Source: an uncultured Gemmatimonadales bacterium (GTDB lineage Bacteria > Gemmatimonadota > Gemmatimonadetes > Gemmatimonadales > GWC2-71-9). Taken from it: 64,000 bases of DNA. Made by a program: the position numbers and the translations under genes. The notes under the pieces were generated by a model. That model was not told the DNA's origin. It made no database searches and worked only from the letters and a program-made list of their open reading frames with translations. Shown here in pieces: positions 2,527 to 43,651 of this stretch; position 1 is the first letter of the stretch, and the number at the start of each line of letters is the position of its first letter. Location of the stretch: NCBI GenBank assembly GCA_963695555.1, contig CAVOGR010000012.1:1-64000 (forward strand). Direction: 5' to 3'.

Positions 2527-3030
2527 CTAGGCCGAGTGCCGACCCGCCGACTCCGCGAGTTCCTTGTCGACCATGAAGAGCCCGGGCGCGCTGTCTCCTA
2601 CCATCCGAAGGGTCTCCACGATTTGACTCGCGGTCTTCTCCTCTTCAACCTGTTCGGTAATGAACCACTGGAGGAGAGCCTGACTTGCGTAATCGCGTTC
2701 CTTCGCGGCCAGGTCGTACAGGCTATGGATTTGGGCCGACACGGCGGCTTCATGAGAGGCGGTAAACTCGAAGGCCTCGAGCGCTGAGCGCGAATTCGAG
2801 GCGCGGCTGGGCAAGGGCCTGGAGCGCCACGCGGCCGCCACGTACTCGACATGGTCGATGAACTTCATGGCATGGCTAGTCCTTTGCGCTGGATCCGCAT
2901 CCAGTGGCAAGCCCACCCCCAATTCTTTGGGCTGAAGAAAGTTGCCATCGACAAGTAGAGGTAGGCCGACTCGAGTTCCGACTCGAATCTGCTGGTTCAT
3001 CGCGTCCTGCATTGCGGCGCTGAGCTTCTA
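2527..3030 (-). CDS. ftnA: Non-heme ferritin (FtnA type), with local indel damage
   Basis: MQDAMNQQI, HAMKFIDHV, LQWFITEQVEEEK, LFMVDKEL. The true start appears damaged near 3030. Confidence 0.85.
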
Positions 3031-3142
3031 TCTCCAATGGGGGTATTCACTCGACCTCGTGCGAGGATCTGGTGAGTCTTACCCGAATGCCGCCAATTCT
3101 CAAGGCTGGACCGAGCCCATCCTGGAGACGAGGCCGTAACTG

Positions 3143-3900
3143 ATGCGACGGATGCAATGGGGACACCTCCTCACCGCGGGCCTTGGCGCGGTGCTGGTCT
3201 TGTTCATCGTCGGGCCACTGCTCCGGCTCTTGTTCAAGGCATCGCCCGCTGGCCTGATGGCAGCATTTCAAGACCCCGAGTTGGGTCTCGCGCTCGCTCT
3301 GTTCCACGGCAACGACCGCCGCCATCGGCATCCTCCTGGGTGTGCCACTCGCGCACTTTCTGGCACGGACCAGGTTTCCCGGACGACGATTGTTCCAAGG
3401 CATCATCGACCTGCCGGTAGTCGTTCCCACCCTGTCGCCGGAATCGCCTTGGTGCCTCTTTCTCGGTCGGCGCTCACCGCTTGGAGGCGCCTTCGCGGCC
3501 GAGCTTGGCCTTGAATTCGTCAGTCATGTTCCGGGCATCGTCGCGGCCATGTTGTTCGTGTCGGCGCCGATCCTGGTGAGCGGGGCCCGGGAGGCGTTTG
3601 CTGCCGTGGACCCGCACCTCGAACGTGCGCTGGGTGACCGCCCGTGGACCGCCTTTCGCCATGCTCGCTCCCCTGGCCGGACGGGAGTCTTGGCGGCGTC
3701 GTTTCTCGCGTGGGCCCGAAGCGTGAGCGAATTGCGGGCGATCGTGGTGATCACCTACAATGCCCAAGGTGGCGAGCGTTTGTGTTCGATCGGTTCACGT
3801 CCTTCGGGTTGGGGGCGGCCATTCCCGCCGCAGTCATTCTCCTGCTGGTCGCCCTGGCCGTACTTCGCCATCGTGCGGCTGCTCGACACCGGGAGCTGGA
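3143..3900 (+). pseudogene. Molybdate/tungstate ABC transporter permease (ModB/WtpB-like), frameshifted
   Basis: PLAHFLARTRFPGRRLFQGIIDLPVVVP, AMLFVSAP, LAWARSVSE; hydrophobic segments. End approximate. Confidence 0.75.
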
Positions 3901-40426: not shown

Positions 40427-41725
40427 ATGTCCGTGACCTCTGAGACTCGAAAGAGCTGGCAAGTCTGCGCGACGTGCGGGGATCGCCTATCCGAGTTGGA
40501 TTCCTCCGCTCGGTGCGACTGCGGCGGTCTGCTCGATATCGTCCACCCCGCTCCACCATCGACGGGCGAAGAACTCCGCGGACTTCTCGATGCACGTCGG
40601 ACAGCATTCGAGGGACCTGCCGCTTCCGGCGTCTGGCGCTTCCGCGACTTGGTCCTTCCGTCCGCCGGCCTCGACGTCGTCAGCTATCCGGAAGGGAATA
40701 CACCCCTCCTCGAGCGCCGATCAATCAGCCGCTGGGCCGGGGTAACGCGTCTCGAACTCAAGCACGAAGGGCATAACCCGACGGGATCGTTCAAGGACCG
40801 AGGCATGACGGTGGGCATCACGCAGGCGCAGCGGATCCAAACGCCTGCCGTGGCGTGCGCATCGACCGGCAACACGGCGGCATCACTGGCGGCCTACGCG
40901 GCCACCGCAGGAGTGCGATGCCTAGTGCTGGTACCCAAGGGTCGGATCGCCGGGGGCAAGCTGGCGCAGGCGTTGGCCTATGGGGCGACGACCCTGCTCG
41001 TTCGGGACGGGTTCGACGGCTGTCTTGCCCTCATTGATCGAGCGTCCAGAGAGCTGGGAGTGTATCTCCTCAATTCCATCAATCCGTTCCGGATCGAGGG
41101 TCAAAAGACCATCATGTTCGAGCTGCTGCAGCAGCTCGCCTGGTCGACGCCGGACTGGCTCGTCGTGCCCGCAGGCAACCTTGGCAACACCGCCGCGTTT
41201 GGAAAGGCATTCCGGGAGGCGGTCGAGTGGGGTCTGATCGAGCGCTGTCCCCGAATGGCCGCCGTCCAGGCCGAAGGGGCGGCGCCGTTTGCGCAGAGCT
41301 ATCGTGAGGGATTTGCCAGACGCCATGAGGTCACTCCCGACACCGTCGCGACCGCGATCCGGATCGGCAACCCCGCGTCCTACGACCGCGCGGTACGCGC
41401 GATCCGAGAAACGGACGGCGTCGTCACGACAGCCACAGATCACGAGATCCTCGAGGCGAAGGCGGTGGTCGACGCGGCCGGCATTGGCTGCGAGCCGGCG
41501 AGCGCGGCAGCCGTGGCCGGCGTGCGGCGACTGGTGCGCGACGGGGTGATTGATCCCAGCCAACGGGTTGTCGCGGTCCTGACCGGCCACATCCTGAAGG
41601 ACCCCGAACTATTGCTCGCGTATCACCAGACGACAGAGCCGGCCCCCCCGAAGGCGAACCGGCCCATTGAAATCGATGCGGATCTGGATCAGCTGGCCCG
41701 CGTGCTCGATCGCTCGGCACGCTGA
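40427..41725 (+). CDS. thrC: Threonine synthase
   Basis: NPTGSFKDRG, CASTGNT, LNSINPFRIEGQKT, EPASAA, TGHILKD. Confidence 0.95.
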   Translation: MSVTSETRKSWQVCATCGDRLSELDSSARCDCGGLLDIVHPAPPSTGEELRGLLDARRTAFEGPAASGVWRFRDLVLPSAGLDVVSYPEGNTPLLERRSISRWAGVTRLELKHEGHNPTGSFKDRGMTVGITQAQRIQTPAVACASTGNTAASLAAYAATAGVRCLVLVPKGRIAGGKLAQALAYGATTLLVRDGFDGCLALIDRASRELGVYLLNSINPFRIEGQKTIMFELLQQLAWSTPDWLVVPAGNLGNTAAFGKAFREAVEWGLIERCPRMAAVQAEGAAPFAQSYREGFARRHEVTPDTVATAIRIGNPASYDRAVRAIRETDGVVTTATDHEILEAKAVVDAAGIGCEPASAAAVAGVRRLVRDGVIDPSQRVVAVLTGHILKDPELLLAYHQTTEPAPPKANRPIEIDADLDQLARVLDRSAR

Positions 41726-41746
41726 GCCTCTGCCCCTCGGTGTCTC

Positions 41747-42328
41747 CTACCCCTCTTCAGTCTGGTGCTCGTGGCTGCCGGCGATCTTGTCGATGGCCTT
41801 CTCGAGCTCGGTATAGGCCGTTGGGTCGACCTCGCGAAACGGGATCTGCCGGTACCCGATGGTGCCGTCGGGCGCGATCACAAACAGGTTCCGATTGTTG
41901 GTCCGACCGCTCGGGCTCATGGCGCCGTACAGCCGGCCAACCGCACTGCCGGGATCGCTCAGGAACGTGAACGGGAACCCTTCGTCCTTGGCCCAGGATG
42001 CCTGGGCCTCCGCTGGATCGGAGCTGATCGCGAGCAGAACCACGTCATCGCCATCATTGAACAGTGTCGCGTACTGATCACGGTACGCTTTCATTTGGAT
42101 GGTTCAGCCAGGGGTCCTCACCCGGTAGAAGAACGCAAGGACCACGGTTTTCCCGGCGAAGTCGCCCAACCGCACCGTGTCCGGCAGGACGCCCTCGCGG
42201 GTCGAGCCCACCAGCGTGAACTCCGGGGCGACCGTTCCGACCTCGAGCGGCGCTTGGGCCTCGAGCGCACCGGCCGCGAACACGCACCCGAGCCCGGCTG
42301 TTGCCAACGCAAGTCCTATTGGTCTCAC
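41747..42328 (-). CDS. Exported peroxiredoxin (Bcp/AhpC-TSA) with in-frame UGA at the peroxidatic position; probable selenoprotein
   Basis: ORFs 42104-42379 and 41747-42094 share a frame: VVLAFFYRVRTPG-[TGA]-TIQMKAYRD. GGAGGA SD before GTG 42328; signal peptide; SECIS-like hairpin. Confidence 0.85.
42069..42088 (-). promoter_or_regulatory. Candidate bacterial SECIS hairpin
   Basis: GCGUAC-CGUGAUCA-GUACGC, beginning 15 nt after the UGA. Confidence 0.55.
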
Positions 42329-42379
42329 ACGATCCTCCATCGGCATATGTTGCTGCCTACCGCCCCACGCTCCTACCAC

Positions 42380-43609
42380 CTACTCGCTGCCCTCCATCAT
42401 TACCCGCCAGATCTTCTGATCCCGGTCCGAGGCGATGTAGAGCGACCCGTCCGGACCCATCGCGACGCCCGACGCGCGAAGACTGGTCGGCCCGGCGGCC
42501 CCGGTGGCGAAGGTCGAGTATTCACCCGTGGGCCGGCCGTTCGCAAACGGAATGTACACCACCCGGTATCCGGCTTGTGGCAAGGGCGCCCGGTTCCATG
42601 AACCGTGGAACGCAAGGAAGGCACCGCCCTGGTACTCGGAACCCAACGCGGGCATGGTGTTGAAGGCCAGGGCCATCGGGGCCCAATGGGCCGGAAAGCC
42701 GATGATCGGGTCTTTCATTTCAGCGCACCGGCCCACCGCTCGTCCATCCCCGCCATACTCGGGCGCCAGGACCTTGGTCTGGGTCTGTGGGTCGTAGTAA
42801 CAGTAGGGCCAGCCGTAGTCGTCGCCCTTGGCGGCGACGCCGAACTCCTCGGCTGGCAGTTCCGCGTTCTGTTCGGCGGTGAATCCCCAGTTGGCGCTCA
42901 GCTGGTCGCGCCCATGTGACGCAAAGTAGAGCTCACCGGTCGACGGGTGAACCGCCAGGGCCATAGGGTTCCGCAGCCCGGTGGTCCACCGCTCTCCGTC
43001 CGACGGTGCTTGATCGAGCTTAGCGGCATCGAACCGCCAGATGCCGGCGCGCTCCTCGAGTTCCGTGCAGGGCATCCGTCCCGGTGACCGTGCGCTCCGA
43101 TCCTGTGCCTGGCAGCTGTTGCTCCTCGATCCGAAGTCGACGAAGAGCGATCCGTCCGGCCCGACCGCCATGGTCTTGGCGGCATGTCCGCCGGTCGGGA
43201 GGCCCGTGACAACCGTCTCGGGTTGGTCCGAGGGCACGAGGGCCCCGTTCGCCAACCGGTACCGTACGATCCGGTCGTTCGGCGCGAAGTATAGGTAACC
43301 ACCGTGGAGCGTCACGCCTGTTCCCGAGGCGCGCCCGATTGGACGGAGCATGTCCGCCTTGCCGTCACCGTCGGTGTCGCGAAGGGCCAAGAGGCCGCCT
43401 CCGCCACGTCCGCCAACGCCGGCGTAGATGTCGCCATTATCCGCTACCACAATGTGTCGCACGGCGCCTAGCCGCTCGCCCACCAGGAGAGCGCAGTAGC
43501 CGGCGGGAAGCACCAAGCCCGCGTTGCCTGGATCGCACACCGGACGTACTTGGGCCTGCACGAAGGTGCAGGGGACGATGACCAGGACTAGGAGGCTGAA
43601 ACGGGGCAT
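42380..43609 (-). CDS. PQQ-dependent sugar/sorbosone dehydrogenase family protein
   Basis: Signal peptide, GLRNPMAL, DYGWPYCY, AHWAPM, FHGSWNR. Confidence 0.88.
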   Translation of the reverse strand: MPRFSLLVLVIVPCTFVQAQVRPVCDPGNAGLVLPAGYCALLVGERLGAVRHIVVADNGDIYAGVGGRGGGGLLALRDTDGDGKADMLRPIGRASGTGVTLHGGYLYFAPNDRIVRYRLANGALVPSDQPETVVTGLPTGGHAAKTMAVGPDGSLFVDFGSRSNSCQAQDRSARSPGRMPCTELEERAGIWRFDAAKLDQAPSDGERWTTGLRNPMALAVHPSTGELYFASHGRDQLSANWGFTAEQNAELPAEEFGVAAKGDDYGWPYCYYDPQTQTKVLAPEYGGDGRAVGRCAEMKDPIIGFPAHWAPMALAFNTMPALGSEYQGGAFLAFHGSWNRAPLPQAGYRVVYIPFANGRPTGEYSTFATGAAGPTSLRASGVAMGPDGSLYIASDRDQKIWRVMMEGSE

Positions 43610-43651
43610 GCGTTCTCCAGCAAGGAACATGGAATGTAGAATAGCATCAGG

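Follow-up and report, generated by a model that had tools for sequence, protein, structure and literature searches.

We found that positions 41747-42328 on the minus strand of a 64,000-nt stretch of DNA from an uncultured Gemmatimonadales bacterium very probably form one gene, here called prx, for a one-selenocysteine (1-Sec) peroxiredoxin with predicted export, which belongs to an AhpE/BCP-like clade of the AhpC/TSA family and in which an in-frame UGA codon specifies selenocysteine (Sec). The stretch, which belongs to contig CAVOGR010000012.1 and is called the window below, is the source of all coordinates.

One reading frame with an internal UGA

Two minus-strand open reading frames (ORFs), 42104..42379 and 41747..42094, share one frame and are parted solely by the TGA at 42106-42104. 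The minus-strand letters around this codon are GTG AGG ACC CCT GGC TGA ACC ATC CAA ATG AAA GCG TAC CGT GAT CAG TAC GCG. When the TGA is translated as Sec (U), the product has 193 residues, runs from a GTG start at 42328 to a TAG stop at 41749-41747, and reads AFFYRVRTPG-U-TIQMKAYRDQYA across the UGA. The GTG start is backed by the orthologue in locus L025, where MTRLTSL begins at the equivalent place. A putative Shine-Dalgarno motif (GGAGGA, 42333..42338, minus strand) lies 4 nt ahead of it.

The Pfam AhpC-TSA domain (PF00578) covers residues 30-159 with an E-value of 1.5e-25 and thus spans the UGA. The best sequence matches in the Protein Data Bank (PDB), found with phmmer, are Mycobacterium tuberculosis AhpE (E-value 2e-12) and archaeal Bcp proteins. 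In these alignments, residue 75, encoded by the UGA (42104..42106), falls on the Cys of the T..C motif, i.e., on the peroxidatic position.

An earlier reading of this DNA, referred to as the original prediction, had joined the two ORFs into a 193-amino-acid peroxiredoxin with UGA at its catalytic Cys and had noted a 6-bp hairpin at 42069-42088, starting 15 nt past the UGA, as a candidate Sec insertion sequence (SECIS). The frame and the join are confirmed by sequence and translation, the domain assignment by Pfam and by the alignment to the AhpE Cys, and the hairpin by sequence and folding. The same prediction pointed to the state of the UGA column in homologues, the presence of sel genes in the genome and the reads at 42104 as ways to check it. 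Each of these came out in its favor, as described below.

Conservation of the UGA and its pairing with cysteine

A six-frame search of 61 genomes, consisting of the window's own and 60 relatives from three families of one order, gave a match in every genome. The best match has TGA at exactly the U75 column in 50 of the 61, in the context RT.G-U-T[IVA]Q[ML]; this number includes one unpublished genome (G018, locus L035), without which it is 49/60. The identity of the TGA-bearing orthologues goes down to roughly 45% (45-95% protein identity). Six genomes have Cys at the column in their best match (L033, L067 and L073-L076), and the other five gave paralogues or a fragment.

Cys forms are also found beyond this set. 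Among 18 further Gemmatimonadota loci (L087-L104), one is a Sec form (L087) and 17 are Cys forms (L088-L104) that read FFP[RK]ARTSGCTIQMKAYRD..., and 106 full-length public proteins carry Cys at the UGA column among the 120 matches listed. The Cys forms use TGC or TGT where all 50 Sec loci have TGA. To judge from these alignments, the TGA forms and their Cys homologues make up a classic Sec/Cys pair.

Two observations concern more distant proteins. The Bcp-like paralogue L080 (genome G024) reads LPRAFTRSSVEQL and has neither Cys nor Sec at the catalytic column. Some AhpC/TSA-like matches in the relatives (30-39% identity) contain one or two in-frame TGA codons, e.g., G029:C21:6598-6990, G013:C33:19920-20363, G007:C296:51829-52212 and G041:C2:316022-316342. 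These may represent further Prx-like selenoprotein families.

An invariant hairpin downstream of the UGA

The candidate SECIS (42069..42088, minus strand) lies inside the coding sequence and has the form GCGUAC-CGUGAUCA-GUACGC, that is, a 6-bp stem and an 8-nt loop. It begins 15 nt after the UGA. The loop begins 21 nt after the UGA and has GU at its positions 2-3. Rules for bacterial SECIS (bSECIS) elements given in the Fig. 2 legend of a 2026 review (PMC13188914) call for a loop of 3-9 nt, a stem of 4-16 bp, a G in the first two loop positions, a UGA-to-loop spacing of 16-37 nt and a minimum free energy (MFE) of -7.5 kcal/mol or lower. The prx hairpin is within these ranges for the loop, the stem, the loop G and the spacing, as expected for the SECIS that the original prediction placed 3′ of the UGA.

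The 20 nt of the hairpin are identical in all 50 Sec loci, synonymous sites included. Codons +6 to +11 after the UGA (GCG TAC CGT GAT CAG TAC) show zero synonymous variation in these loci, and two of them, CGT and GAT, are unusual picks given that the window is 65% G+C. The third base of codon +12 varies (G in 32 loci, C in 13, A in 4 and T in 1), such that the constraint ends exactly at the last paired base. Neighboring Ala, Arg, Thr and Leu codons outside the hairpin vary freely.

A control comes from seven Cys-form orthologues that encode the same peptide, AYRDQY. They encode the Arg by CGC (six) or CGG (one), never by CGT, the Tyr at +7 by TAT (five) or TAC (two), and the Asp by GAC (four) or GAT (three). 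Each of the 21 Cys-form rows departs from the 20-mer at 2-9 positions. Because Cys forms with the same peptide vary in their codons, the nucleotide constraint is tied to the UGA and not to the protein. Moreover, the hairpin is more than a chance structure, because TGA and the exact 20-mer recur together in 50 of 50 orthologous TGA loci. We also considered that the 20-mer might be a repeat or mobile motif, which is ruled out by its uniqueness in its own genome at up to 3 mismatches. One difference between the two forms lies before the hairpin: the third codon after the UGA (Gln; 42095-42097) is CAA in 43 of the 50 Sec forms and CAG in all 21 Cys-form rows.

The invariance extends to changes that would leave the structure intact. 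Synonymous swaps that preserve pairing (GCA with UAU at G3-C18, and UAU with CAA at C6-G15) were never seen in the 50 Sec loci. The loop bases U9 and U12 are at fully degenerate third codon positions, yet are fixed in all 50. Because these permitted changes are absent and U9 and U12 are fixed, the pattern argues for a hairpin that is recognized by base identity, beyond its shape.

A SECIS common to prx and selD was ruled out, as the selD hairpin differs (7-bp stem, GUC loop). The selD SECIS can nonetheless be used as a benchmark. In 21 Sec forms, 11 of its 17 hairpin positions are invariant, but it tolerates G-U wobble, and a compensatory change to A-U occurs once, at the base of the stem. By this comparison, the invariance of the prx hairpin is stricter than that of selD, not different in kind.

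Selenocysteine machinery and sequence reads

The window's own genome (3.57 Mb in 14 contigs, 87% complete) contains selA, selB, selC and selD. The tRNA-Sec gene (selC) scored 70.7 bits and was called SeC(tca) by ARAGORN. The other scores are 505 bits for selA (cut-off 268), 286 bits for selB (cut-off 242) and 367 bits for selD. The selD gene has an in-frame UGA of its own, in HGAG-U-ACK. It is located on contig 7 at 793584-794507 (locus L018, TGA at locus position 1531) and is itself a selenoprotein gene. We read 25 selD loci in relatives, 21 of which are Sec forms and 4 Cys forms. Separately, contig 1 of the window's own genome has an EF-Tu-like GTPase match at 634434-634907, in an open frame of 451 codons that contains a single TGA, adjoining tRNA-like matches at 634011-634180.

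Across the 61 genomes, selA was found in 54 and selD in 57. Three genomes that are 98-100% complete (G049, G057 and G059) have Cys forms of prx, and neither selA nor selD was found in them.

Contigs of four public sequencing runs, two from RNA libraries and two from DNA, show no difference from the window at the UGA (42104-42106) or the hairpin (42069-42088). The nearest listed change is G>C at 42101, which is synonymous (ACC to ACG). A 1,229-nt contig from metatranscriptome library X1 covers all of 41600-42500 and shows 26 differences from the window. Three of the four runs (not X2) also contain short contigs that match about 42068-42110 alone and diverge on both sides. The block of UGA and hairpin thus appears to be shared by the copies of many co-occurring organisms. 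We tried to derive a habitat from runs X16-X20, and rejected this since the word shares are too small to inform.

Properties of the predicted protein

A Foldseek search with an AlphaFold2 model of the protein ranked AhpE chains first (32% identity and a template modeling score of 0.85 on the target); other peroxiredoxins came next, and the top matches all belong to this group. The model was built from a 38-sequence alignment (A1) and has a mean predicted local distance difference test (pLDDT) score of 86.5 and a predicted template modeling score of 0.81. In it, residue 75 opens a helix formed by residues 73-84. Thr72 of the T-x-x-U motif (42113..42115) is nearly invariant. Arg146 (41891..41893) is an invariant column in alignment A1, and is a residue that we take to be the conserved catalytic active-site Arg of peroxiredoxins.

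The only other Cys of the product is C15, which lies in the N-terminal hydrophobic segment, and the mature part has no further Cys. This agrees with the original prediction that a resolving Cys is missing. Likewise, in 49 of the 50 Sec loci, Cys is absent from the 44 residues that precede U and from the whole sequence that follows it, and no downstream second Cys was found in the 106 full-length Cys orthologues. The resolving Cys that BCP/PrxQ proteins have five residues on (CxxxxC) is not present, the sequence here being UTIQMK. Because neither Sec nor Cys orthologues have a resolving Cys, the enzyme of this clade is, as judged from sequence, of the 1-Sec/1-Cys type. The protein thus has AhpE-like traits: a single catalytic Cys or Sec, no resolving Cys, and AhpE as its closest relative in both sequence and fold.

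Residues 1-24 (approximately 42257..42328) form a predicted signal peptide with one basic residue and a hydrophobic core, ending in ...ALEAQA. All orthologues have a hydrophobic N-terminus that ends in A-x-A or AQ-like motifs ahead of the domain. The first 20 residues of the model are disordered, with pLDDT below 50 at residues 1-16 and 18-20. The orthologue sequences and this low confidence are consistent with export.

Alternative explanations

Several results weigh against the Sec reading. The 20-mer alone folds with -7.0 kcal/mol, slightly short of the bSECIS energy rule; a 71-nt stretch reaches -12.2 (centroid) and -12.5 kcal/mol (MFE), helped by flanking pairs that are specific to the window. 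In comparison with shuffled sequences, the 71-nt fold is not unusually stable (z = +0.28), and 118 of 200 shuffles were as good or better. Since the stem is invariant, no covariation could be assessed, and the structure is therefore proposed without compensatory changes. An Rfam scan of 41700-42400 at E-values up to 10 found just a chance match to a long non-coding RNA (E-value 5.2) and no SECIS family. The correlation with the Sec machinery is imperfect: G010 has the machinery yet carries a Cys form of prx, and two fragmented genomes with TGA forms gave no selA match but do have selD, namely G033 (91% complete, 550 contigs) and G054 (85%, 420 contigs). All NCBIfam scores are far under their curated cut-offs, e.g., 57.2 versus 140 bits for Bcp (NF006960) and 52.4 versus 270 bits for the PrxU equivalog (NF040737). 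The protein is a peroxiredoxin that belongs to neither of these curated equivalogs. The X1 contig from an RNA library also covers the end of the convergent gene thrC. As it spans convergent genes and could reflect carry-over of DNA, we rejected it as proof that prx is expressed, and it does not prove transcription. Finally, we infer both the incorporation of selenium at U75 and the export of the protein from sequence.

The least improbable alternative is that an ordinary residue (Cys, Trp or Gly) is inserted at the UGA, through near-cognate decoding or a lineage-specific recoding that bypasses Sec, with the hairpin stimulating read-through instead of binding SelB. This explanation could invoke the sequence-based nature of the case for selenium, a hairpin that matches no curated SECIS family, and invariant loop bases that point to sequence-specific recognition by some factor. 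We nevertheless consider it very unlikely. The window's genome has a complete set of Sec genes, relatives in which neither selA nor selD was found carry Cys forms, the geometry of the hairpin is that of a bSECIS, and the UGA is exactly on the redox Cys column, which is a hallmark of Sec/Cys pairs. In addition, no terminator is used more often in the window than TGA, which closes 34 of 53 long frames, and 15 of the 50 Sec-prx genes themselves end in TGA. TGA is thus used as an ordinary terminator, and the code is therefore not reassigned.

A pseudogene, or a gene that is truly split, could also produce two ORFs: a nonsense mutation would leave a 74-residue N-terminal fragment or two products. 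Standard gene calling does give two ORFs, and public protein sets hold just a 115-amino-acid fragment of the window's own gene among the matches listed. However, the TGA is kept in 50 of 61 genomes at 45-95% protein identity, both halves are under purifying selection and mostly have no other stops, the nucleotide-level constraint begins past the TGA, and the interruption coincides precisely with the catalytic residue. Decay or splitting of the gene is therefore extremely unlikely. The chance that a mistake in sequencing or assembly turned TGC or TGT into this TGA is negligible, as nothing was found in its favor, contigs of four independent public runs agree at 42104-42106, and fifty independently assembled genomes have the same codon.

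With Sec as the preferred reading of the UGA, we propose the following mechanism. SelB with Sec-tRNA(Sec) would decode the UGA at codon 75 as Sec, having been recruited by the 20-nt hairpin within the coding sequence, 15 nt past the UGA. The signal peptide would route the protein to the envelope, where peroxides would be reduced by the selenolate at the start of helix 2, acting together with Thr72 and Arg146. The selenolate would thereby be converted to the selenenic acid, which an external reductant would recycle. An external reductant would be needed because the protein is without a resolving Cys. One possible recycling route for an envelope 1-Sec Prx is feeding by a DsbD-family protein, similar to PprX/ScsB.

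Loss of the motif proline

Canonical peroxiredoxins of this kind have the motif PxxxTxxC, and the conserved Pro is replaced in the window's gene. The original prediction was mistaken about the replacement, which it took to be Arg: position -7 from U is Tyr68 (42125..42127), as in the phmmer alignments, where Tyr68 falls on the motif Pro, and Arg69 is at -6. Among the 50 Sec forms, position -7 is Phe in 24, Tyr in 21, Pro in 3, Ser in 1 and Ile in 1 (Tyr/Phe in 45/50), and among 106 full-length Cys forms it is Pro in 105 and Tyr in 1, counts that reflect related sequences and not independent events. The sole full-length Cys form with Tyr at this place is P0012 (LAFFYKARTRGCTIQMDTYRDRYP), which looks like a reversion from Sec to Cys in a Tyr-bearing Sec form.

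We built a quick tree, drawn with midpoint rooting, from which L035 was left out and to which L087 was added, resulting in 49 Sec forms of the clade. In this tree, 46 of the 49 fall in one all-Sec clade of 48 rows with support of 86 in the Shimodaira-Hasegawa-like approximate likelihood ratio test (SH-aLRT); two of the 48 rows were not scored for the motif. A Sec/Pro pair (L069 and L071) and the Cys/Pro lineages come off an unresolved backbone, Phe and Tyr flip many times, and the outgroup paralogues are all Cys/Pro. By parsimony, this quick tree suggests the order Cys/Pro, then Sec/Pro, then Sec with an aromatic residue.

It is conceivable both that the gain of Sec in this clade went together with the loss of an active-site Pro that is nearly universal elsewhere, and that the SECIS is read base by base. 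If so, the enzyme would be a Y/FxxxTxxU 1-Sec peroxidase of the envelope with a mechanism of its own, SelB would use a recognition code peculiar to the lineage, and the case would go beyond one more replacement of Cys by Sec. We offer this combined proposal only tentatively, and regard it as less probable than its failure in one part or another.

Distribution and significance

We scanned 401 genomes sampled across the phylum for the pattern TGA-ACN-NNN-CAR-MTG-NNN followed by the exact 20-mer. The pattern occurs in 257 of the 401 genomes, and in 257 of the 382 within the window's class; two of the matching genomes (G186 and G211) are unpublished, and without them the count is 255/399. A reversed control pattern gave 0 matches in the same scan. 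By family, and excluding the window's own genome, which is itself a match, the exact pattern was found in 117/166 genomes of f1, 47/93 of f2, 4/5 of f3, 5/7 of f4, 2/2 of f5, 23/30 of f6 and 58/70 of f7. It was found in 0/8 genomes of the families f8-f9, which belong to the same class, and in 0/19 of the families f10-f12 outside the class. The scan is blind to variant hairpins, and the 144 unmatched genomes could have a Cys form, a variant or no copy at all. For the invariance of the hairpin, the figure free of bias is hence the homology-based 50/50, not the pattern scan. Six of the genomes listed (G170, G173, G194, G372, G314 and G325) have two copies of the pattern each, so Sec-prx is duplicated in some lineages.

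Public annotation gives a different picture of this gene. Among the 120 matches listed, its Sec forms appear only as fragments, 10 proteins of 107-115 amino acids that start with MKAYRDQY; this is the splitting by gene callers that the original prediction expected. One such fragment is named 'redoxin domain-containing protein'. For the window's own gene, the C-terminal fragment of 115 amino acids is the only form in public protein sets among the matches listed. A gene present in about two thirds of the sampled genomes of its class (257/382) is thus represented publicly by a 115-amino-acid fragment that looks catalytically dead. Because annotation keeps the C-terminal fragment only, the antioxidant capacity and the selenium dependence of Gemmatimonadales are under-counted.

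The gene predicts a selenoenzyme in the envelope of largely aerobic bacteria of soil and sediment. It also provides a natural experiment in two respects. The clade offers a dense series of Sec and Cys forms, with loss of the canonical Pro nearly confined to the Sec forms, and a SECIS constrained at single bases could define how SelB recognizes its target in this lineage. The known mechanisms of Sec insertion and of peroxiredoxins are unchanged by the finding.

Genomic context

The upstream neighbor on the same strand encodes an exported protein resembling glucose/sorbosone dehydrogenases (42380..43630, minus strand; Pfam GSDH PF07995, E-value 1.3e-16). It is separated from the prx start by 51 nt, and the two genes are possibly co-transcribed. 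Downstream, prx converges on the threonine synthase gene thrC, with a GHMP kinase beyond it; an amidohydrolase is located farther upstream. Of 29 loci with 1.5-kb flanks, 7 have a GSDH-like gene next to prx, and of 22 loci with 3-kb flanks, 17 do; four loci are common to both sets, and the 3-kb loci with the neighbor are mostly Cys forms. We rejected the GSDH-like gene as a defined operon partner of prx, since it adjoins in just 7/29 loci with 1.5-kb flanks and the 17/22 of the other set are mostly Cys forms. The association between the two genes is loose.

Comparison with known systems

The 2026 review (PMC13188914) counts Prx, as a family with PF00578 and TxxU, among the prokaryotic selenoproteins with experimental support. 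Its prototype, PrxU, comes from Eubacterium acidaminophilum (Sohling et al. 2001, as cited in PMC13188914), and the review describes the PxxxTxxU motif of Sec-Prx as 'highly conserved'. Table 1 of Zhang et al. 2006 has 12 Prx selenoproteins with 5 inferred Cys-to-Sec events. In these catalogues, the family is defined by T/SxxU, with the Pro being a residue of the motif and not a criterion.

Literature on Gemmatimonadetes or Gemmatimonadota together with selenocysteine or selenoprotein yielded nothing about the prx gene, judged by titles and the start of abstracts. The string 'Gemmatimon' is absent from the main texts of the 2026 review and of the BSepDB paper. According to its Table S1, BSepDB analyzed 64,762 genomes, Gemmatimonadota among them, and given its tblastn method, this database may already hold the Gemmatimonadota prx genes.

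The window's gene shares with the Sec-Prx family the AhpC/TSA fold, UGA at the peroxidatic Cys of T-x-x-U, Cys homologues and an in-frame bSECIS-like element 3′ of the UGA. It differs in that its clade mostly has Tyr or Phe in place of the Pro (45/50), and the protein scores just 52 bits against the 270 set for PrxU. It also differs from PrxU and other Sec-Prx proteins in having a predicted signal peptide and no resolving Cys.

AhpE (Rv2238c; PDB 1xxu, 1xvw, 4x0x and 5id2) is the best match in sequence and fold, and similarly has a single catalytic residue and no resolving Cys. In AhpE, however, the catalytic residue is Cys, the motif Pro is retained (FFPLAFTGIC), and a signal peptide is absent from the deposited chains. 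The window's organism is not expected to have the reductant system of AhpE, for which the title of 5id2 mentions mycothiol. The BCP/PrxQ proteins (NF006960) share the active-site context T-P-G-[C/U]-T, and the Joint Genome Institute (JGI) names Cys-form orthologues 'peroxiredoxin Q/BCP'. By contrast, the window's protein scores 57 bits versus 140 and is without the CxxxxC resolving Cys. In the quick tree, ordinary BCP paralogues with FYPKDFTPGCT from the same genomes fall into clades of their own. An Acidobacteria metagenome-assembled genome (L105, match 3001-3408) has a Sec-PrxQ that reads FYPKADTPG-U-TIEGC, and thus keeps both the motif Pro and the resolving Cys; this Sec-PrxQ is without the 20-mer hairpin.

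A precedent for an extracytoplasmic peroxiredoxin that draws electrons from a membrane electron transporter is PprX, a cell-envelope enzyme that Cho et al. (mBio 2012, PMC3322552) describe as being reduced via the DsbD-family transporter ScsB. Unlike the protein predicted here, PprX is a proteobacterial Cys enzyme. In sum, the gene joins an established selenoprotein family, Sec-Prx (PF00578, TxxU). What it adds to the known Sec-Prx is modest: an active site with Tyr or Phe for Pro, the lack of a resolving Cys, a predicted location in the envelope, and an invariant SECIS.

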